From NCBI GenBank assembly GCA_963726745.1, contig CAVSDR010000002.1, positions 192,001 to 256,000 of the forward strand: a DNA stretch of 64,000 bases. Direction: 5' to 3'. The translations under genes were made by a program, and so were the position numbers. Of this stretch, positions 111 to 13,068 are shown piece by piece. Positions within the stretch are counted from its first letter, which is position 1, and each line of letters opens with the position of its first letter. This stretch comes from an uncultured Verrucomicrobiae bacterium (GTDB lineage Bacteria > Verrucomicrobiota > Verrucomicrobiia > Chthoniobacterales > UBA10450). A model generated the notes under the pieces. The model saw only the letters and a list, made by a program, of their open reading frames with translations, was not told where the DNA came from and ran no database searches.

Positions 111-504
111 ATGAAGAGCAAGAAGGAGATTCGCCAGGCTTCGAAAGAGCTCCTGCGCGCCAGCTTCACCGATGGCCAGCTCGACAAGGGCCGAATCAGC
201 CACTTGGTGAAGTCGCTCCTGGAGAAGCAGCCGCGCAATTACCTGGCGGTCCTGGAGGCCTACAAGCGCCTCGTGCGCCTGGAGGTGGAGAAGCGCAGCG
301 CCACGATCGAGACCGCCAGCGAGCTTTCGCCCGACGCCGGCAAGCAGATCGTGGAGAATCTCAAGAGCGCGCTACGGCAGTGATCTCGACGCCACCTTTG
401 TGGTCAACCCCGAGCTCCTGGGCGGCATGCGCATTCGCGTAGGCAGCGACGTCTGGGACAGCAGCGTGCGCAATCGCCTGCAGCGTCTCGCACAGCAACT
501 TTAA
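111..504 (+). CDS. atpH: ATP synthase F1 subunit delta (frameshift near 365-375, probably sequencing error)
   Basis: ORF 111-383 continues in another frame as DLDATFVVNPELLGGMRIRVGSDVWDSSVRNRL..* (stop 502-504), the conserved delta/OSCP C-terminus; operon position. Confidence 0.9.
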
Positions 505-516
505 CCAAACCTAATT

Positions 517-2052
517 ATGAGCAGTATTCTGGAAGACATCGAAACACAGATCGCGGGGCTGAAAACCTCGACGACCAAGAGCAACGTCGGCATCGTCCGC
601 GACACCGGCGACGGCGTCGCCCGCATCGAAGGCCTGAGCGACGTCATGCTCAATGAGATGATCGAGTTCTCGAGCGGCGTCTATGGTCTGGCGCTCAACC
701 TCGAGGAAACCGAGGTCGGCGCGATCCTGCTCGGCGACAACATTTCGGTGAAGGAGGGCGACGAAGCCCGCACCACCGGCAAACTGCTCCAGGTCCCCGT
801 GGGCAAAGGCCTGCTCGGCCGCGTGGTCAATACCCTTGGCCAGCCAGTCGATGGCAAGGGCCCGATCAAGTCCGACGTCTCTTACCCGGTCGAGAAAATT
901 GCTCCCGGCGTGATCAAGCGTAAAGCCGTGAACCAGCCGGTGCAGACCGGCATCATGGCCATCGACGCGATGATCCCGATCGGTCGTGGCCAGCGCGAGT
1001 TGATCATCGGCGATCGCGCCACCGGCAAAACAGCCGTCGCCTTGGACGCGATCATCAGCCAGGCGCGTTTGAACAAAGCCGCCGAAGAAGGCCGCCTGGC
1101 GGATCATCGCCCGCTGTATTGCATCTACGTGGCCATCGGCCAGAAGAACTCAAACGTGGCCCGTGCTCTCGCGGTGCTCGAGCGCGAAGGCGCGATGCCT
1201 TACACCACGATCATCTCGGCACCGGCCTCCGATACTGCGACCAACCAATATCTCGCGCCGTTCGCCGGTGCGGCCATGGGCGAGTGGTTCATGGATAACG
1301 GCATGGATGCGCTCATCATCTATGACGATCTTTCCAAGCATGCCGTGGCTTATCGCCAAGTCTCGTTAGTCTTGAAGCGTCCTTCCGGCCGCGAAGCTTA
1401 TCCGGGCGACGTTTTCTATCTCCACTCGCGGTTGCTCGAGCGCAGCGCGCGCGTGACCGAAGAGGCAGGCGGCGGTTCGTTGACGGCGCTGCCGATTATC
1501 GAGACCCAGGCGGGCGACGTCTCGGCTTACATTCCGACGAACGTGATCTCGATCACGGACGGTCAGATTTATCTCGAGACTGATTTGTTTTACCAAGGGG
1601 TGCGTCCCGCCATCTCGGTGGGTCTCTCGGTTAGCCGCGTCGGTTCGGCCGCGCAGATCAAGGCGATCAAACAAGTTGCCGGCAAAATTAAGCTCGATCT
1701 TGCGCAGTTCCGCGAGCTCGCGGCGTTCGCGCAGTTCGGTTCCGATCTCGATGCCGGCACGAAGGCGCGGCTCGATCGCGGTGCGCGCATCGTGGAGCTC
1801 TTCAAGCAGGGCCAATACAATCCGATCCCGGTGGAAGACCAGGTCGCGATTCTCTGGGCCATGCAGAATGGTTATCTCGACAGCGTCCCGGTGGAGAAGG
1901 TGAAAGCCTTCCAGCTGAAGCTGCAGGATTACCTCCGCACGCGGAAGGAAAGCATTCTCACTTCCATTGTGAGCAAGAAGGCGATCGACAAGGATCTCGA
2001 AGGCCAACTGGCCGCTGCGCTCGAAGAATTCAAGAGCACCAATCCGGTCTAA
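517..2052 (+). CDS. atpA: ATP synthase F1 subunit alpha
   Basis: [17 protein letters not shown]alker [20 protein letters not shown] motif. Confidence 0.99.
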
Positions 2053-2055
2053 CCA

Positions 2056-2934
2056 GTGGCGAATACGCAAGACATCCGGCGCCGGATCAAGTCGATCCGG
2101 AACACCGCGCAGATCACCAAGGCCATGCAGATGGTCGCGGCCTCGAAGATGCGCAAGGCGCAGCAGCACGCCCTCGCGGGCCGCTCCTATGCGAGCCTGA
2201 TGAATCGTGTGCTCGTCTCGCTGCAAAAGCGGACCGATCCGAAGCTGCATCCGCTGCTTCAGGTCCGGGAAGTGAAGCGCGAGCTCGTGATCGTAGTCAG
2301 CACGGATAAAGGCCTGGCCGGTGCGCTGAACACCAACCTGCTGCGCGAAGCGGCCAACTTCGACGCGGCGAAGACCTCTTACATCGTCGTCGGTCGCAAG
2401 GCGCGGCAGTTCCTCGCGCGGACCAAGCGCGAGATTTTGGCCGACTTCGAGCTGAAGGACGCGCCTTCGTTTCCCGAGACCAAACAGGTCGCGCAGTTTG
2501 CGACCGAGAAATTTCTCAGCGGCGAGGTCGATCGGGTTTCGGTGCTCTACACGCACTTCATCAATACGATCAACCAGAAGCCGATCGTGCAGACGATCTT
2601 CCCGATCTCGGACTTCGACGTCATGGGCGCCGAGGGCCAGCCGACCGCTGAGACTTCAGCGAGCGACCCGATGGGCGGCTACGTTTTCGAGCCTTCGCCG
2701 GAAGCGGTCCTTGACGTCATCCTGCCGTATTACGTGCAGTATGAAGTCTTCCAAATGATCCTCGACGCGCGGGCTTCGGAGCACAGCGCGCGCATGGTCG
2801 CGATGAAGAACGCGACCGATAACGCGAAGCAATTCATCAAGGACCTGACCCTTGAATACAACAAGATGCGCCAGGCCAGCATCACCACCGAGCTCCTCGA
2901 AATCGCGACCGCGCAGATGGCGCTCGGGAGTTAA
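2056..2934 (+). CDS. atpG: ATP synthase F1 subunit gamma
   Basis: QITKAMQMVAASKM N-terminus, RMVAMKNATDNA...RQASITTELLEI C-terminus. Confidence 0.99.
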   Translation: MANTQDIRRRIKSIRNTAQITKAMQMVAASKMRKAQQHALAGRSYASLMNRVLVSLQKRTDPKLHPLLQVREVKRELVIVVSTDKGLAGALNTNLLREAANFDAAKTSYIVVGRKARQFLARTKREILADFELKDAPSFPETKQVAQFATEKFLSGEVDRVSVLYTHFINTINQKPIVQTIFPISDFDVMGAEGQPTAETSASDPMGGYVFEPSPEAVLDVILPYYVQYEVFQMILDARASEHSARMVAMKNATDNAKQFIKDLTLEYNKMRQASITTELLEIATAQMALGS

Positions 2935-4373
<1,439 letters not shown>

Positions 4374-4374
<1 letters not shown>

Positions 4375-4784
4375 TGGCCCACACGCTTCGACTCGAGATC
4401 GTCACTCCGGAGGCCACGGCCTACTCGGAAGACGTGGAGATGGTCACCCTCACCGGTGCGGAAGGTGAACTCGGTGTCTATCCGAATCACGTCCCTTTGC
4501 TGACCACTTTGCAGCCGGGCGAATTGCGCGTGCTCAAGGGTGGCAAGGAGACCTTTCTCGCAGTCGGCGAAGGCTTCGTCGAGATCAAGGCGGATGCGGT
4601 TTCGGTTTTAACCGACGTCGCACTGGAAGCTTCGAAGATCGACTTGGGTGCGGCGGAGGCGGCCGTGGCCCGGGCACAGGCGGCAATGAAGGAAGACCAC
4701 ACCGCCGAGGAAGTGGCCTCGATCCAGGCGAGCCTGCAAAAAGCGCTGGCGCAGCTCCACGTCAAGCGTCGCCGGCATTCCTAG
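4374..4784 (+). CDS. atpC: ATP synthase F1 subunit epsilon
   Basis: LEIVTPE...GELGVYPNHVP motif; last gene of the F1 block. Confidence 0.97.
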
Positions 4785-4799: not shown

Positions 4800-5621
4800 G
4801 TGCATGCGCCGCCGGTTCTCGGCCTGATTGCCGGGAGTGGCGTTTATCCAAAACTGCTCGCGGAAGCGGCGCGCCGCGCCGGGGTGGCGCGGATCTTTGC
4901 TGCGGCCTTTGAGGGTGAAACCGATCCCGCGCTGGCAGAATTAGTCGACGAGATCGAATGGATGCGGGTGGGCCAGCTTGGCCGGCTCTTGAAGTTTTTC
5001 CAGCGCGCGCAGGTGGCGCAAGCGATCATGGCCGGCCAGATCGCGCCGAAGAATCTCTTCGATTTTCGGCCGGACATGAAAGCGCTGGTTGTGCTCGCGC
5101 GCCTGCCGCAGCGCAACGCGGAATCGCTCTTTGGCGCGATCGCCAACGAACTCGCCGCGGTCGGGGTAGAGTTGCTCCCGGCGACAACCTACATGGATGA
5201 ATTCCTGGCCGTGGAAGGTTTGATCGCCGGTCGCGCATTGAGCCGGCGCGAGGGCGCGGATGTGGCTTATGGATTTCGCATTGCGAAGGAAATTAGCCGA
5301 CTGGATGTGGGACAGACGGTGGTGGTCAAAGGAGGGACAGTGCTGGCGGTGGAAGCTTTTGAAGGAACAAACGAAGCGCTGCGGCGCGGCGCCGCGCTCG
5401 GCCGAGAAGGAGCGGTCTTGGTGAAAGTCTCGAAGCCGGATCAAGACATGCGTTTTGACGTGCCGGTGATCGGGCTCGAAACGGTGCGGACCGCGGCCGA
5501 GGCCAAACTGCGGGTCTTGGCGGTGGAAGCAGGCAAGACCTTGCTGCTCGAGAAAGCCGCGCTGCAGGAAGCGGCGACGCGCGCTGGGCTGACGATTTTT
5601 GGTTGTCAGGCTACTGCGTAG
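4800..5621 (+). CDS. lpxI: UDP-2,3-diacylglucosamine diphosphatase LpxI family (DUF1009)
   Basis: LGLIAGSG N-terminus; DVGQTVVV, AVEAFEGT and KPDQDMRFDVPVIG motifs. Confidence 0.9.
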   Translation: MHAPPVLGLIAGSGVYPKLLAEAARRAGVARIFAAAFEGETDPALAELVDEIEWMRVGQLGRLLKFFQRAQVAQAIMAGQIAPKNLFDFRPDMKALVVLARLPQRNAESLFGAIANELAAVGVELLPATTYMDEFLAVEGLIAGRALSRREGADVAYGFRIAKEISRLDVGQTVVVKGGTVLAVEAFEGTNEALRRGAALGREGAVLVKVSKPDQDMRFDVPVIGLETVRTAAEAKLRVLAVEAGKTLLLEKAALQEAATRAGLTIFGCQATA

Positions 5622-6492
5622 GCGGCGGCTCCGGCACTTGGTAGACTTCAAGCAGAGCCGTGCCGGAAGTGGCATTGAGGCCGCGGGCGACGGCGGTATA
5701 TGTGCCGGGCAAGAGGCTGGTGAGGATGGCCGCCTCCAAGGTATTCGGCGGAGCCAGGCCAGTCTGCTGAATCTGGAACTGCTGGTCGTCCTGCCAATTG
5801 TTGTTTTGTCCAATGAGCTGGCCGTTGGCGTTGAAGACTTCGACCATCGGATCTTGCAGCGCATCCGTGATCCCGACCTGACTGAGCGACGGCCCCAGGA
5901 GTCGCACCAGCAGCCGAAGCTCGCCGCTACCACCCCCAACGATGAAGCCGCTGATGACAAGGTTATCGCCGGTGCCGACATAGCCGCGCGTGCTTAGGTT
6001 CCTCAAGGCGGCGGTGCTACCGGCATTGAGATCGTAGAGTTCGATCACACCGATGCCCTGAGTGGAATTATTCCCGCGGAGGATGGTGGTGTAGCTGCCG
6101 GCGGCGAAGGTGTGCACGATCGCGGATTCGAGGTCGTTCGAAGGAGCGGCGCCGGTGGCTTCGATCTGAGTTTGCTGGCTATCCTTCCAGTTGTTATTCG
6201 AGGCGAGGGTGGTGCCGCCGGAAAAGAGCTGGAGCGTCGGATCGGCCAGGCGGCCGGCGAGCGGAACGCCATTGATCTGCAACGAGGGGCCGATGCCGCG
6301 GACCAGGATGTCTTTGCCATCTCCCTGGATGATGAAGCCGGCAATGGCAACGCGGTTGCCCGTGCCGACGTTCGCCCGGGAGGAGATGTTCAGGAGCTTG
6401 CTGGGCGTGTCGACCGCGAGGGCGAGCGGCGCGAGGAGGAAACCAGCCAGCAAGATGGCGGGCAGAAGAAGCAGGAGGCGGGGAGTTTTCAT
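5611..6492 (-). CDS. Secreted protein made of two tandem 'N[IL]STR' verrucomicrobial repeat domains
   Basis: Signal peptide MKTPRLLLLL...ALA; two ~130 aa repeats starting LLNISSRANVGTG and LRNLSTRGYVGTG, each with NNNW.D.Q and ending [IL]E[LV]Y. Confidence 0.8.
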   Translation of the reverse strand: MKTPRLLLLLPAILLAGFLLAPLALAVDTPSKLLNISSRANVGTGNRVAIAGFIIQGDGKDILVRGIGPSLQINGVPLAGRLADPTLQLFSGGTTLASNNNWKDSQQTQIEATGAAPSNDLESAIVHTFAAGSYTTILRGNNSTQGIGVIELYDLNAGSTAALRNLSTRGYVGTGDNLVISGFIVGGGSGELRLLVRLLGPSLSQVGITDALQDPMVEVFNANGQLIGQNNNWQDDQQFQIQQTGLAPPNTLEAAILTSLLPGTYTAVARGLNATSGTALLEVYQVPEPPPTQ

Positions 6493-6643: not shown

Positions 6644-9600
6644 TTATGGCCCGGTCACGAGAATGCCGGCGGTGCGCGCATTTGTCGGTCCGGTCGCGGT
6701 GATGGTGACCACACTGCCGAAGCCCGCGGGGGCCAGGGTGACGGTAAACGAAGGCGAGACCGACTGGCCGGCAGCGATAGTGGCGCTGGCCGGCAAGGTG
6801 GTATTGGGCGCATCGCTGCTGCTGAGTGCCGCGGTAATCCCACCCGCGGGAGCAGGAATCTGGCTGGTGATGACGCCGCTGTATTGGCCAGGCTGACCGG
6901 AAACAGGAGTGAGGACGAGCCGGGCCAGCTCGACCGAACGCGAGGTGACAGCGGCGACCACCAGGTTATCGAAGGCCACGCCGGAGGTCGCGAGGGTCGG
7001 ATCGCTCAGGTTCTGCGGACGAACGTCGAAGGCGGTGCCGCCGCTATCCTGGGTGTATTCGAAACGCAACTGAACGACCGAGCCGGCAAGGCTCTCGCCC
7101 GAGGCAACCGCGGATAAGTTTGTCCCGGGCAGTTTCACGCGGACATGCTTGAAGCCGCCGGAATATCCAGCCCAAGCCGAGAGATCCTGCAGGTAAGCCG
7201 AGCTGTTATTGCGCGGCATATGCTTCGGGTAATGCTGCAGGGCGCCAGTGGCAAATTCCTCCGCGAAGGCTTCGAGCAAGACCGAGCGCAGGACGCGGGT
7301 GCCGCCAGATTGATCGGTCACGCGGAGGAGGAAGCCGTCGTAGCAAAGGATGTTGTAGCTCGGATCGTCCTCGGTGTTGTAAGCCACATCCATGTCGAGG
7401 GTGACGTATTCCGCGTTCGTGGGGATGGTGATGAGCGGGCTGAAGAGGCGCTCGAAACGCGTGGGATTGGTCGCGTCGTTCGCGTTCACATGGAAGGCCG
7501 CATTATTCGGCGAGCCGGATGGGCGAAACGCGGTATTGCTGGTGGTCCACGGGACGGTATTGGTTCCACCTCCGTGCGAGGTGGTCCAGCCGACGGGGAG
7601 GGCGCCGGGAGCAACGCCGTCGAAATTCTCCGAGAGAAGAAGCGTCGTCACCGGGCTGCCGGTTGGCTGCTGATAGGTAAAGGTGCGCGTGCCTTGGTTT
7701 GTAGTCACCGTGAGCGTGAGCGGCAGGCGGGTGCCAGGAGTGAATCCCGGTCCGACCTTGAAGACGAAGGTGTCGGTGTTGCTGGTCGTGGCATCGGGAG
7801 CCGCATTCGGGTAAGAGGAGGTGGCACGGAGGAAGGTCACGTTCGGATCCGAGCTGGAGAGGGTGGCGCTGATGCCGGTAATGGTCACGGGCGTCGAGAC
7901 CGGATTGGTGACATAGTTCCGCAAAGGAATGGTCATTTTCACCTGGTCGCCAGCGTCGACGATGCCGTTTCCACCGCTTTCGGTGAAGGAAACTGCTTCC
8001 AGTCCGCGACTTGCGGGGAAGGCGAAGTAGGTGAGCTGCAAGGACGGCACCGGGGGCGCAGAAGTGCGGCGGAAGAAGTCGTCGGGTGTGGTCATGCTCC
8101 CTGCGTTGGCGTTACCTGCGGGAATCTGGCCATCACCGTAAGGCTTCAGTTCTGTGATCGCGTGAATGGAGAAGAGTTCGCCATTTTGGGCCACAGTTTG
8201 ATTGTAATCGCCGAGGTTCGGCTGGCCGGTGTCATTGCCCCAGCCGGCCTTGAAGGGAGCGAAGCTCAACGGTTGCGGCTTGCTGAAGGTGACGCCGCCG
8301 TCATTGGAAGTAACCACGGTGATTTCGGTAAGGTCGCCGCTGGTGGCGATACCTTGATCGAAGTAGGTGATGAAAATGCGACCAGTGCTTTGGTCGACGG
8401 CAACGGTCGGGAACCACTGGCAACGGTCGTTGCCTGGCCGGCTATTGACCAGGACGGGCGCGGAGAAGCTGACGCCGCCGTTTAGGCTGCGCTGGAAGGC
8501 GATGTCGCCGCCATCGAGGTTGGCATTCGTGGAGTAGACGACGTAGATCGGCTTGGGAGTCACCACGAGGCCGCCCGGCGACCGGCGAACACCATCGCGA
8601 CTGCGGACACCAGTGGCAGGAGCACTCGAGGGACCGACAGCGATGAAGGGAAAGGAGTGCACCCGGTCATTTCCGAGGACTTGGTCGAGCATCCGGAAAG
8701 GCGCAGCCAGCAAGTTGGTGGGTGTGCCCCAGGTAGCGCCGTTGTCGGTCGAGGAGTTAAAGCCCTCGTTGTTCTGAGTGTAGCCACTCGGGTCTAACGG
8801 AGTGGCGTTGCGGGCGTTGGTCACCGCATAAAGCGCAGAGCCATCCGGGGCGAAACGCGGCTGAATGCCTTGGGGGAAGCCGCCGTTGAAAGTGGACGGA
8901 AAGACCACTGCGGCCGCGGACCATGTAGGCGTGGCGCTGGTGGGATTATCGCAATAGGTCGACACGTTTTCGGCGCCGCCGCTGCCGATAAAGTTAGTCC
9001 AGGCTACAACCAGGCGGCCGGTGACGGGATGGATGTCGAAGAATTCCTTGTCGGCCGAATCCGTGGTCGTGCGGGGCCGGGTGGCGCCGGTGATCTCAAA
9101 CGGTCCCTGCCAGGTGTGGCCAAAGTCGGTCGAACGATGCAGGCTGAGCGTCTGGGAGGTCGCGGGCAAGCCCGTCGCCCCCATGTTGTTCTTCACCATG
9201 ATGGAGGTGTAATAGAAAGTGCTTCCGCCGGCGTAGCGGATGTCCGGGTCGCCGAAGATCTGCGGGTAGAGCGTGCCGCTGAGCGACGTCGTCGGTCCAG
9301 GCGGAAGGCTGCCGCCATCGACGAAGGTCGCACCGCCGTCATCCGAATAGTAGTAGCCGGAAAGCTGGAAGGGGCTCTTGTTGAACCCGCGGGTGTCGTT
9401 GAAGCCGATGACGATGTGCTGGCCGGTGCTGTCGACCGCGATGGAATATTCCGCCTGTCCGCCGGGAATGGCGAGGGCCCAATCCGGGTCGCCATCGCCC
9501 GCGCGATCGAGGTCCGGGCCGGTGGGTGCATAGGGGCTGGGCACGAAGACAAGCTGGTTGCCTTCCACCCGACCACTGCCGCCGCGTTCAACCCATTGCG

Positions 9601-10417
9601 AGTAAATTTTTGCGATCCGGCCCATGTCGCTCATATGCATCGTCGGGTCTTGCGCGACCTGGCCCTTGGCCAACGTCTCGATGCGGGCGCGGATCCCGGC
9701 GCGCACATCGCCTTGCGCATTCGCGGCCGGAGACAAAAAGATCGGCGCAATGGCCGCAACCCCCACGGTGGCGAGAGCAGCGCTCCGTGTTCGGAACCGT
9801 CCAAAGAAGCGAGCAAAGCCCGCCACGGCCGCCAGGCCGAGAGCCAGCAGGATGAGGCCCGAGGAGGATTCTGGGACTGCAGACGGCGCGTTGGTGGTTC
9901 CGAAGTTAAATCGGATAGTCTGCTCCTTGGCCGAACCGCCAGTGGTGCTATCGAGGTTGAGGGTCAGATTGACCACCCCCGAGGTGATCGGGGTGGGATT
10001 AAGAAAGCTAAGCGAGAAATTCGACGCATTGGTTGAAAACGGGACGTTGTTGAAGTTGCTCCAGCTCAGGGTCCCGTTAACAAACCCCGGACTCGTAAAC
10101 AACCCCGTCAGATTCATTGAAAAGGCGTTGATGATCTGCCCAGCCATCGCGGTCACTGGGATGCTGACGCTGAAGGTGCCGACAGGATCGAAGGCGGCGG
10201 TGCTGTAATTAGGCAGCGTGATCGTCCAGGAAGTGGGGGTGGTGACGACACTTTGGCCGGTCAAAAATGCGGGATTGGACGCCGATTGAGTGGCTGGTCC
10301 ATACGTGACCTGAGCTTGCGCCGCCGGCGCGCTCCAGAGGAATACTGCGAGACAAGGCAGGAGGATGGAAAAGGCGAACTTGGTGCGCCGGGTCGGGCAT
10401 GGGGTGAGGGAAGACAT
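6644..10417 (-). CDS. Large secreted protein: N-terminal PEP-CTERM module fused to a BNR/Asp-box (sialidase-like) beta-propeller plus beta-sandwich domains
   Basis: Likely start ATG 10417; signal peptide ..AQA; internal VPESSS-TM-RFFGRFRTR; second signal ..PAANA|Q; Asp boxes SDDGGATF, STDFGHTW, STDNGATW, SLNGGVSF, SNDGGVTF. Confidence 0.8.
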   Translation of the reverse strand: MSSLTPCPTRRTKFAFSILLPCLAVFLWSAPAAQAQVTYGPATQSASNPAFLTGQSVVTTPTSWTITLPNYSTAAFDPVGTFSVSIPVTAMAGQIINAFSMNLTGLFTSPGFVNGTLSWSNFNNVPFSTNASNFSLSFLNPTPITSGVVNLTLNLDSTTGGSAKEQTIRFNFGTTNAPSAVPESSSGLILLALGLAAVAGFARFFGRFRTRSAALATVGVAAIAPIFLSPAANAQGDVRAGIRARIETLAKGQVAQDPTMHMSDMGRIAKIYSQWVERGGSGRVEGNQLVFVPSPYAPTGPDLDRAGDGDPDWALAIPGGQAEYSIAVDSTGQHIVIGFNDTRGFNKSPFQLSGYYYSDDGGATFVDGGSLPPGPTTSLSGTLYPQIFGDPDIRYAGGSTFYYTSIMVKNNMGATGLPATSQTLSLHRSTDFGHTWQGPFEITGATRPRTTTDSADKEFFDIHPVTGRLVVAWTNFIGSGGAENVSTYCDNPTSATPTWSAAAVVFPSTFNGGFPQGIQPRFAPDGSALYAVTNARNATPLDPSGYTQNNEGFNSSTDNGATWGTPTNLLAAPFRMLDQVLGNDRVHSFPFIAVGPSSAPATGVRSRDGVRRSPGGLVVTPKPIYVVYSTNANLDGGDIAFQRSLNGGVSFSAPVLVNSRPGNDRCQWFPTVAVDQSTGRIFITYFDQGIATSGDLTEITVVTSNDGGVTFSKPQPLSFAPFKAGWGNDTGQPNLGDYNQTVAQNGELFSIHAITELKPYGDGQIPAGNANAGSMTTPDDFFRRTSAPPVPSLQLTYFAFPASRGLEAVSFTESGGNGIVDAGDQVKMTIPLRNYVTNPVSTPVTITGISATLSSSDPNVTFLRATSSYPNAAPDATTSNTDTFVFKVGPGFTPGTRLPLTLTVTTNQGTRTFTYQQPTGSPVTTLLLSENFDGVAPGALPVGWTTSHGGGTNTVPWTTSNTAFRPSGSPNNAAFHVNANDATNPTRFERLFSPLITIPTNAEYVTLDMDVAYNTEDDPSYNILCYDGFLLRVTDQSGGTRVLRSVLLEAFAEEFATGALQHYPKHMPRNNSSAYLQDLSAWAGYSGGFKHVRVKLPGTNLSAVASGESLAGSVVQLRFEYTQDSGGTAFDVRPQNLSDPTLATSGVAFDNLVVAAVTSRSVELARLVLTPVSGQPGQYSGVITSQIPAPAGGITAALSSSDAPNTTLPASATIAAGQSVSPSFTVTLAPAGFGSVVTITATGPTNARTAGILVTGP

Positions 10418-10651
10418 AAGAGCTGCAGGTCCTTTCGTTGATGGGAGGCGTGCCCTAGCCTCAGGAATCCGGAAATCGCATAAGCCTATCCCGTGCCTAA
10501 GTTTATCTGCTAAACGTGTCCAAATAGTCCTTAACCGACGGGAGGGCAGATTGTTACGGCCCATTCCCGTAGACGGAAATTAGCGGTTTAGCATTTCTCG
10601 CTTTGCGACAAAACGTAAGCTATGCCGACAATGCCCTCGCAGGTATTTGCA

Positions 10652-11650
10652 CTACTGAAGGTCGATCGTGCGGAAGAACAGCCGCGACGGACGCGGCTCA
10701 CTGACCCGATAGTATGGGATCACCGTTGGGTCGACCGAAAGCCACGTCTTCAGGTCGAACGATTGCTGCAACTGCCCCACGAAGTTCACCACGATGGCGC
10801 CGTTGGCATCTCTCCCGACCGCGGCGAAGGGCGCCGCTGGCGGCAGCATCGCCCCGGTGGCGACCGGCCGCGGGGTGTTCGAGGCACCGGTGAGTTCCTG
10901 CCAGTCGTAATCGACGAAACGAGTAAGCCGGTTGCCGGACGCATCGAAGACCTCCTCGTTCCAGAGCTCGGCCCAGCCGCTCCCGACCGCGGTGAAATTA
11001 GGCCCGGATGAAGCTGTGGCCGCGGCACTGAGCGTCCAGTCGAGCGTGAAAGCGCTGCCAAAAGTGATCGGGAGCTGGACCGTGCTCCAATCCGCCATGC
11101 CCGCGTCACTCGCGAGATTCCCGGTTCCGTGCAGCGTCCGGGAAAAGGCGTCGCCGCCGCCGGCGCCGTCGTCCATGAGCAAGCCCATGTCGAGCGAGGC
11201 GCTGTCAAAACCGCGCACCCGCTGCGCCCAGTGATAGCGAAAGGTGAAACGGATGCTGCCTTCCGCACCATCGAGCCCGGCGCGCAGCGGCTGCACCACG
11301 AACGTCCCGGTGCGATGCAGCGCGCTCACCGCCGTGGCCGCCGCCGGGCTGCTCGCGGCGGGCTGGTCCGCCTCCGACCGGACGTAGGACTTCTCGGTGA
11401 TCACGAAGTCTCCCGCCGTGGGAAACTGCGGCAGCCCGCCGAGCGAGATGCCGCTGGTAAAAACCTGGCCGGAAACAAACTGCTCCGGCGACAGAATCAT
11501 CGCTTCATCCGTCAAGAGTCCCGCGCCGGCGGATTTCGTGTGGATAAATCGCTGGCCCGCATAGAGGTCGAGCCGCGAACTGGTGGAACTGGCGAGAGAG
11601 GCGGAGGTGAGCAGGCCAAGACAAAGGAGGGAAGGAAGGGAAATGTTCAT
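10652..11650 (-). CDS. Secreted hypothetical protein with verrucomicrobial-type C-terminal motif
   Basis: Signal peptide MNISLPSLLCLGLLTSASLA; C-terminal LQQSFDLKTW...RLFFRT tail. Confidence 0.65.
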   Translation of the reverse strand: MNISLPSLLCLGLLTSASLASSTSSRLDLYAGQRFIHTKSAGAGLLTDEAMILSPEQFVSGQVFTSGISLGGLPQFPTAGDFVITEKSYVRSEADQPAASSPAAATAVSALHRTGTFVVQPLRAGLDGAEGSIRFTFRYHWAQRVRGFDSASLDMGLLMDDGAGGGDAFSRTLHGTGNLASDAGMADWSTVQLPITFGSAFTLDWTLSAAATASSGPNFTAVGSGWAELWNEEVFDASGNRLTRFVDYDWQELTGASNTPRPVATGAMLPPAAPFAAVGRDANGAIVVNFVGQLQQSFDLKTWLSVDPTVIPYYRVSEPRPSRLFFRTIDLQ

Positions 11651-11708
11651 GGGACAGGGACATGACGCGACGCTGTCGCTGCGCGAAAAAGGAGAGTAAC
11701 GTAAACCC

Positions 11709-12029
11709 ATGAACGCGTGCACGCACTACTGGCAATTCGCCAGGAGCGTTTCCCGAAAGATTAGCCGGCCACTTCATCTGCCGGTCGCTTCGATGGCTTT
11801 ACTTGTTTTCTGCGGGCTGGCCCAATCAAACGCTGCTCCCGAGAAAGCCACCCCCGAGACCGAGCGCGGCATCACGCCCTCGCCGGCGCCTTCTCTCACG
11901 CCCACCGCCACGCCCGCGCGACCCTCGTCCGACGAGGAAGCTTTCGAAGCCGCCCGGCGCCGGCGGGCGCTCGAACGAGGCCGCGAAAGGGGCGGCAGCG
12001 AGCCCGCGTCGCCCTCGCCGAAGCCGTAG
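11709..12029 (+). CDS. Small hypothetical exported protein, Pro/Ala-rich
   Basis: ORF with hydrophobic segment and SNA cleavage-like site; start uncertain. Confidence 0.35.
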   Translation: MNACTHYWQFARSVSRKISRPLHLPVASMALLVFCGLAQSNAAPEKATPETERGITPSPAPSLTPTATPARPSSDEEAFEAARRRRALERGRERGGSEPASPSPKP

Positions 12030-12231: not shown

Positions 12232-13068
12232 ATGCTTTCTCGCTTTGTTCTTGCCCTGGCTGCTACGGCCACCTTCGTCGCTGCCCCTCGTGCTTTAGCT
12301 CAATCGGTCGTCGCCGATTATCGCGTGCAAGACACCTTCAACTCTTCCGTCGGCACGATCGGGCCGCTCGTACCTGTCGGCGCCGGGATGGTGACCTTCA
12401 ACGACGCCACGGTGGACGGACAAATGCAGCGCGTGCTCACGATTACGACTAATTCGACCGCTCCTGGCTCCGACTCCGGCGTGCAGACGCAGGCGGTGGG
12501 CGTGCTCAACCCGGCAAACTACTCGGTCGTGCTCCTCTCGGACTTCGTGATTAATCCCGCCAACGTCGTTGCCACCAAGATCTTTGACTTCAAGAATCTC
12601 AGCACCGATGCCGGGCTCTACGTCAATGCCGCGGACGGCACGCTCGCGTTCATCGACGGCATGGGAGTGGTCCAGGGAACCGGTGGGGCGGCCATTTCCA
12701 GTCTCGAGTTCGTGCAGGTGGTGCTCACCCGGGCGGCCGCGACTGGCCTAACGAGTATCTACTTGAATGGAATGCCGGCCTTTTCGTTTGTCGACACCAC
12801 CGGGCTGGCAATCCTGGGTGACGCGACCGCGACGGGTAACGCCTTCCTCACGCTCTATAAGGACGACGGCATGGGGCTGGGAGGAAGTGTCCTGGGCGAG
12901 GGGACTCAAGGCGACATCGCACGACTGCGGTTATACGACGGCGTGCTCTCGGCGGGGCAGGTGGCTGGCCTCGACCGCGCCATCCCGGAGCCCTCGACCT
13001 ACGCGCTGCTGGTCACGGGCGTTCTGCTCGTGGGCGCCTGGCGCCGTCGGCGTCAAAGCGCTGGCTAA
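12232..13068 (+). CDS. PEP-CTERM sorting domain protein (LamG-like beta-sandwich)
   Basis: Signal peptide ..ALA; C-terminal IPEPSTYALLVTGVLLVGAWRRRR. Confidence 0.88.
   Translation: MLSRFVLALAATATFVAAPRALAQSVVADYRVQDTFNSSVGTIGPLVPVGAGMVTFNDATVDGQMQRVLTITTNSTAPGSDSGVQTQAVGVLNPANYSVVLLSDFVINPANVVATKIFDFKNLSTDAGLYVNAADGTLAFIDGMGVVQGTGGAAISSLEFVQVVLTRAAATGLTSIYLNGMPAFSFVDTTGLAILGDATATGNAFLTLYKDDGMGLGGSVLGEGTQGDIARLRLYDGVLSAGQVAGLDRAIPEPSTYALLVTGVLLVGAWRRRRQSAG

Follow-up and report, generated by a model that had tools for sequence, protein, structure and literature searches.

An internal PEP-CTERM-like tag running into a second signal peptide in a conserved bacterial gene, a likely secretory polyprotein

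In bacteria, a gene for a secreted protein is normally taken to give a single exported chain, and PEP-CTERM counts by definition as a C-terminal sorting tag, mid-chain cases being set aside as possibly non-functional. A gene in the 64,000-nucleotide stretch analysed here (the window; contig CAVSDR010000002.1 of an uncultured Verrucomicrobiae bacterium) raises the question of whether such a tag can work from within a chain, as its product carries a PEP-CTERM-like tag that runs directly into a second signal peptide and a large Asp-box protein. The gene encodes a single conserved chain of 1,257 residues which is likely a secretory polyprotein, with cleavage predicted to yield two exported proteins; we assign this reading a probability of about 0.65. 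What is established is the layout and the fact that it is conserved, that each half also exists on its own, and that genes for exosortase and signal peptidase I are present.

An earlier reading made from the sequence only had described most of this architecture, and it largely holds (Table 1). The frame is indeed single and uninterrupted; the first signal peptide (SP1) ends at AQA↓Q, with Ala35 invariant in the five full-length fusions; the predicted Thr/Ser/Asn-rich domain of about 140 residues, here called unit 1, has 145 (16% Thr, 13% Ser, 10% Asn, no Cys) and is modelled as a jelly roll; a second h-region with an AxA site does come right after the basic tail, with Gln at +1 in all seven junctions compared; and the large Asp-box protein downstream, unit 2, comprises 1,023 residues with five Asp boxes. 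Of the claimed PEP-CTERM-like motif, transmembrane (TM) helix and basic tail, the latter two stood, whereas the motif is VPESS rather than PEP and falls below the hidden Markov model (HMM) cut-offs. Signal peptides and cleavage sites were judged by simple sequence rules. By these the window protein has the features of a PEP-CTERM substrate in its N-terminal signal, its TM helix behind the motif (TM1, aa 185-202), its basic cluster (four Arg within aa 203-212) and a body poor in Cys and basic residues, but not in the location of the tag, which starts 1,077 aa before the stop. The second signal peptide (SP2) likewise looks like a Sec and signal peptidase I substrate, with a basic n-region, an uncharged h-region (about aa 212-230) and small residues at -3 and -1 (ANA↓Q). 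In window coordinates Q36 lies at 10312, V181, the start of the tag, at 9877 and the Q235 codon at 9715-9713. The start corresponding to 10417 is used by three Verrucomicrobiota orthologues; an alternative upstream ATG at 10564 would lengthen the frame by 49 codons.

Table 1. Parts of the gene in window coordinates.
Feature	Position	Strand	Remarks and basis
Whole open reading frame (P0001)	6644..10417	(-)	1,257 aa; SP1 - unit 1 - PEP-CTERM-like tag - basic loop - SP2 - unit 2
SP1 (aa 1-35), predicted site AQA↓Q36	10313..10417	(-)	Sequence; hydrophobic 14-30; by rule
Unit 1 (aa 36-180), Thr/Ser/Asn-rich all-beta jelly roll	9878..10312	(-)	AlphaFold2, fold match, stand-alone homologues
Internal PEP-CTERM-like motif VPESSS (VPDSG-like subtype) and TM1 (aa 181-202)	9812..9877	(-)	HMM scores including orthologous sites
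Basic cytoplasmic loop (aa 203-212)	9782..9811	(-)	4-5 Arg/Lys in 7/7 junctions
SP2 h-/c-region (aa 213-234), predicted signal peptidase I site ANA↓Q235	9716..9781	(-)	Gln +1 in 7/7 junctions
Unit 2 (aa 235-1257)	6644..9715	(-)	PF13088, homologues, AlphaFold2, weak sialidase matches

The layout is neither an artefact nor recent. First, the frame across the junction, whose confirmation had been called for, shows neither a stop nor an indel over the tag and basic tail in a contig from run X4 (one study; 212 nt, depth 2.6), which spans 9754-9965 with one differing letter and no gaps and covers the tag, the basic loop and about ten codons of the second h-region, ending before the cleavage site. 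Next, the homologues do not always occur as two separate genes, since the fusion is kept in six further sequences, from three Verrucomicrobiota genomes, one Acidobacteriota genome and two fragments, and this sharing by orthologues settles the question of an artefact. Unit-2 homologues amounted to 722 of 7,998 scored, and among the best 120 of the 722 the same N-terminal block was present in P0002, P0007 and P0010; a genome scan contributed one new fusion among 46 loci (L041; Acidobacteriota, Bryobacterales) and a search of representatives the fragments P0122 and P0153. Finally, the recent gene fusion that the sequence-only reading had offered as an alternative is rejected: the window and its fused relatives share just 26-38% identity in unit 1 and 50-67% in unit 2, and against the same-genus genome third codon positions have diverged by 52-76%. 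Within the junction, codons of the window and of a same-genus relative differ at 52, 36 and 76% of first, second and third positions, respectively, and as the differences peak at the third position the junction appears to be old coding sequence.

The junction is also uniform in its construction. In all seven cases, the window included, the predicted site lies 42-54 aa from the tag, with 4-5 basic residues in between and, at the site itself, Gln preceded by a small residue, and the mean hydropathy of the second h-region is 2.1-2.9; in the four full-length relatives the junction is 38-47% identical to that of the window. Between the basic cluster and the second h-region Met is absent from six junctions, and L041 has one at the start of the h-region. 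The fusion gene is rare: unit 2 is encoded in 5 of 354 other genomes of the host's family, once fused and four times stand-alone, and in 2 of 30 genomes of a second family, both times fused. Two unpublished genomes, G008 and G030, contribute to tallies alone.

The machinery for processing a PEP-CTERM tag is available in the host genome. The assembly (3.4 Mb, 95% complete) encodes four exosortases and 33 terminal tags, as expected for a genome with exosortase substrates. Of its 37 tag-like matches, 33 lie at most 70 aa from a stop and three are chance-like matches in membrane proteins, and only the window tag precedes a second signal and a large domain. One of the exosortases is XrtC-like, its nearest type being the VPDSG-specific one (239/300 bits), which fits the VPESS variant of the window tag. 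Exosortases are likewise encoded in all four other fusion genomes (5/5 with the host), and the internal tags reach a Pfam or TIGRFAM cut-off in all four orthologues scored, with 31.6, 33.3 and 23.8 bits on PF07589 (cut-off 20.7) for L028, L029 and L041, respectively, and 16.7 bits on TIGR02595 (cut-off 16) for L024. The glutaminyl cyclase family PF05096 was not found in the host genome.

Both halves of the chain have relatives of their own. A profile built from five full-length N-terminal blocks matched 110 representatives; a single-sequence search with aa 1-260 recovered the query alone, and it was the profile searches that recovered the family. All 22 full-length unit-1 homologues picked (182-206 aa, typically about 190) terminate in a PEP-CTERM-type tag. 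Among the non-fused unit-2 homologues, 103 of 116 have a signal-like N-terminal segment at the position matching SP2. The second h-region ends 23-35 aa ahead of a conserved MSxMGR motif in the fusions, and the corresponding distance in the stand-alone homologues has a median of 18 and a range of 7-68 (62 of the 116 were scorable). The signal of the stand-alone P0018, from the same clade as L041, ends in WS↓Q, as do the internal signals of L041, P0122 and P0153. Because of this agreement in position and in the WS↓Q ending, SP2 is likely the ordinary signal of the unit-2 family, with the basic tail of the tag replacing its start.

These elements suggest a route by which the chain would be processed, drawn from the established rules of Sec export, namely the positive-inside and (-3,-1) rules. 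SP1 would open Sec export and be removed at AQA↓Q36, after which the PEP-CTERM helix would halt transfer with unit 1 outside. The Arg-rich loop would stay inside and serve as the n-region of SP2, whose helix would resume export, and signal peptidase I would cut at ANA↓Q235, freeing an Asp-box protein of about 107 kDa. An exosortase, probably the XrtC-like one, would process the tag and leave unit 1, about 15 kDa, anchored or released; failing this, unit 1 would be kept by the leftover hairpin as a product of about 20 kDa. We put the chance that both predicted cuts take place slightly short of even, while processing by signal peptidase alone would be rather unlikely. A precedent for cleavage of an internal tag comes from the archaeosortase ArtA, which cuts a central PGF tag in mid-chain according to the available text of PMC6098224.

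Several observations weigh against the polyprotein reading. Methionine occupies position -3 of the SP2 site in P0010, and in five of the seven junctions the rule-based picker preferred sites other than the Gln-aligned one. The signal peptidase I match of the host is split over two frames (G000:C7:5279-6104), which is probably an assembly indel. Unit 1 was not found in any of the nine genomes with a stand-alone unit 2, assemblies that are incomplete, although the same profile detects the fusion genomes; its absence beside stand-alone unit 2 disfavours an obligate partnership, and the two units are probably not obligate partners. In favour of the polyprotein reading, internal tags at least 60 aa from the end occur in 28 of the 109 other profile matches, at 63 sites, and an h-region with a site follows in 58 of 60 internal-tag junctions as compared to 12 of 99 read-through controls, but the former count is partly circular and the contrast inflated, as the profile used for selection contained the junction; of the 12 positive controls, about half are genuine signal peptides lying downstream. 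A Met before the h-region has been kept in only 11 of the 58 positive junctions. The most extreme case is P0121, a Planctomycetales protein with ten tags, and P0121, P0143, P0146, P0152 and others form chains with 4-10 PEP-CTERM tags, most of them followed by a signal-like stretch.

A further counterpoint is the weakness of the window's own tag, which lies under all HMM cut-offs, with no match to PF07589 or TIGR02595 and 12.7 bits on the VPDSG-CTERM model TIGR03778 (cut-off 22), and long-tailed tags in general have been proposed as possibly non-functional in the available text of Haft 2006 (PMC1569441). Both points would suit a hairpin that stays uncut, in which a tag drifted below the cut-offs and the second helix form a two-pass anchor that holds unit 1 and unit 2 at the inner membrane, on its outer face, in one protein of about 128 kDa; such a tether could be useful, as unit 2 of the fusions has no C-terminal tag. 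Against this, the small residue at -1 and the following Gln are kept in 7/7 junctions and the P-E pair of the tag is invariant in all five aligned fusions, and the second helix, which is short and rich in Ala and Val and has a break of the Pro/Ser/Gly type, matches the signals of the stand-alone relatives. We consider the uncut form improbable.

A similarly small chance is left for unit 2 being made mainly from an internal start, such as GTG198 in TM1, which would give it a 37-aa signal peptide and make the long frame a tolerated by-product. In-frame GTG or TTG codons do lie in TM1, 14-18 codons past the tag start, in all four Verrucomicrobiota fusions, another point that tells against a polyprotein, and L041 has an ATG just ahead of the second h-region; a missing Shine-Dalgarno site is no objection, since such sites precede only 99 of 965 long open reading frames of the host genome. 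These codons are, however, at background level, with 25 of the 33 terminal tags of the host having one at offsets 8-22 and 14 of the 33 at offsets 14-18, and neither their position nor the codon is conserved. Moreover, without a stop every unit 1 carries unit 2, and no stop arose despite the heavy third-position divergence. It is highly improbable that two separate genes were joined by faulty assembly or by a read-through mutation of very recent date, for although probable indels occur elsewhere (the split signal peptidase I, a frameshift-like case near C3:332484) and in-frame neighbours lie 7-16 codons past terminal tags in the host genome, the X4 contig is gap-free across the tag, the fusion recurs in four other assemblies and two fragments, and a split pair was not seen in the flanks of the fetched loci. 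The case at G000:C3:332484 consists of a terminal tag after whose TGA an in-frame signal-like stretch, free of Met, and a frame of 360 aa follow; since an ATG overlaps in another frame, a coupled gene with a one-base assembly error is suggested, read-through being the alternative.

As to what the two products may be, the AlphaFold2 model of unit 1 is an all-beta jelly roll with a predicted local distance difference test (pLDDT) score of 92.9. Its top fold match is Bd1399 of Bdellovibrio (8okh; Z 11.3, root mean square deviation 3.0, 133 aligned residues), and the next ones, at Z 7-8.5, are generic jelly rolls and carbohydrate-binding modules that do not indicate a function. Unit 1 probably serves as a surface domain, either glycan-binding or structural.

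Unit 2 begins with helices bearing the MSxMGR motif, followed by the Asp-box region (about aa 315-790), two or three beta-domains and an Ig-like domain of about 100 aa, and its AlphaFold2 model has a pLDDT of 83.6 and a predicted template modelling score of 0.82. It matches PF13088 (E 1e-6) and also PF02012; profile matches to solved sialidases are weak (best E 3.5e-6), a phmmer search of unit 2 against the PDB gave no matches, and in the ESM Atlas one BNR_2 cluster was found at 0.95. The Asp boxes, the Pfam matches and the weak sialidase matches make the Asp-box region a probable propeller, and unit 2 as a whole is probably a carbohydrate-active propeller enzyme. Sialidases of family GH33 have a six-bladed propeller with an F/Y-R-I-P motif, an Arg triad and a Tyr nucleophile. 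Unit 2 resembles these and other BNR Asp-box proteins in its five Asp boxes and its PF13088 and PF02012 matches; in contrast to them, the F/Y-R-I-P pattern is absent from the window translation and occurs anywhere in just 5 of 120 family members, and an N-[LI]-G-D-Y motif, found in 119 of the 120 unit-2 homologues including that of the window, is there in its stead. The MSxMGR helix (window 9617-9634, minus strand) and the acidic linker before the Asp-box region are conserved across the family and could be a propeptide or lid. In the same-genus orthologue the last Ig-like domain is in another frame (L024:6519-6836), by frameshift or error. The next gene in the window (5611-6492, minus strand) has a signal-like start and tandem DVUA0089-like domains, and over 260 aa its product shares 46% identity with the C-terminal part of P0003, a stand-alone unit-2 homologue, so that what is separate here is fused in P0003.

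Trees of the two units, both midpoint-rooted, pair the Verrucomicrobiota fusions alike as (P0001, P0002) and (P0007, P0010), and in both the acidobacterial fusions are separated from them by strongly supported branches. The fusion label requires three changes on the unit-2 tree (40 rows) and two on the unit-1 tree (28 rows), a pattern compatible both with two fusion events between the same families and with one old fusion that was split later. Nested among the fusions are five stand-alone Verrucomicrobiota unit-2 proteins (support 93/86), which suggests a secondary split and makes it likely that unit 2 works without unit 1; no separate unit-1 gene adjoining a stand-alone unit 2 was seen in the fetched loci. 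The fusion likely originated when the stop separating a PEP-CTERM gene from an in-frame secreted neighbour was lost and, after it, the second start codon, and raw material for this exists in the host genome, where three terminal-tag genes precede, in frame, a gene with a signal-like start 7-16 codons past the stop. A much wider model is conceivable but doubtful: a reusable hairpin of sorting tag and signal peptide would build virus-style polyproteins of 2-10 units, the jelly-roll and Asp-box pair having been joined twice independently, in Verrucomicrobiota and in Acidobacteriota, under selection for one-to-one delivery to the same place, with the small unit anchored by exosortase positioning the released enzyme.

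Upstream of the gene, a sigma-54-like site 81 nt away (8/11 consensus positions; 0.15 expected per 280 nt) was rejected as unconserved in four orthologues. A secreted-looking protein without a Pfam or NCBIfam match is encoded upstream at 10652-11722 (minus strand), and by eye a similar-looking gene precedes the fusion in L024. An ordinary terminal PEP-CTERM protein with a LamG-like domain lies at 12232-13068 (plus strand), and by sequence appearance 111-4784 (plus strand) holds F-type ATP synthase genes, delta to epsilon. A large secreted-looking protein, metalloprotease-like by eye, comes after the fusion in both f6 genomes (L028:4345 onward, L029:6773 onward).

Compared to known PEP-CTERM/exosortase substrates (PF07589, TIGR02595; VPDSG-CTERM TIGR03778 with exosortase TIGR04151), the window protein shares the signal peptide, the Thr/Ser/Asn-rich Cys-free domain and the motif-TM-basic order of the tag, the many paralogues and exosortases in the genome, and a unit-1 family that normally ends in the tag. 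It differs in that its tag is far from the C-terminal end and leads on to a second signal, whereas a median of three residues follows the tag in the available text of Haft et al. 2006 (PMC1569441). Because it does not have the terminal position, the window protein is not a canonical PEP-CTERM member, but it is likely to work like one joined to a precursor cut by signal peptidase. What a terminal tag frees is a tiny peptide only, while in the window chain the tag is followed by a product of 107 kDa.

Internal MYXO-CTERM and PGF-CTERM tags have already been published, as the available parts of the two sources that follow attest. MXAN_5598, for which a gene fusion has been invoked and processing proposed (Guo, Haft, Wall 2025, PMC11980579), likewise carries its sorting tag in mid-chain, with a surface region on the N-terminal side and an exported domain on the C-terminal side; that case involves another tag and protease and a single protein, and the available text mentions neither a second signal peptide nor conservation. 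In the Haloferax ArtA substrate, an archaeal Tat substrate with a central PGF-CTERM formed by a strain-specific fusion to a NifU domain, a mid-chain tag was cut experimentally by an enzyme of the exosortase family, and the window chain adds to this a second export signal, undescribed for the ArtA substrate in the available text (PMC6098224). A literature search, which covered subscription papers thinly and had supplements outside its scope, did not find a paper on PEP-CTERM polyproteins, and a look-up of the term was negative in the available text of PMC1569441, PMC12188702, bioRxiv 2023.06.07.544157 and PMC4960237.

The layout is conserved in two phyla, and the persistence of a fusion across families and phyla is an argument that mid-chain tags are functional and that a class of polyproteins goes unnoticed in annotation. 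Blocking the second site would make an exosortase cut, and its position, visible by gel electrophoresis, much as was possible for archaeosortase with the central PGF fusion. Single chains giving two proteins by way of signal peptidase have other parallels. In Bradyrhizobium, the cytochrome b-c1 precursor FbcH reportedly carries an internal signal that is cut by signal peptidase to give two membrane subunits of one complex, with no sorting tag, and at the anchor-plus-signal junctions of flaviviruses one chain likewise gives two proteins via signal peptidase in a eukaryotic setting. Compared with both, the window chain joins two exported modules by a reusable tag-plus-signal hairpin.

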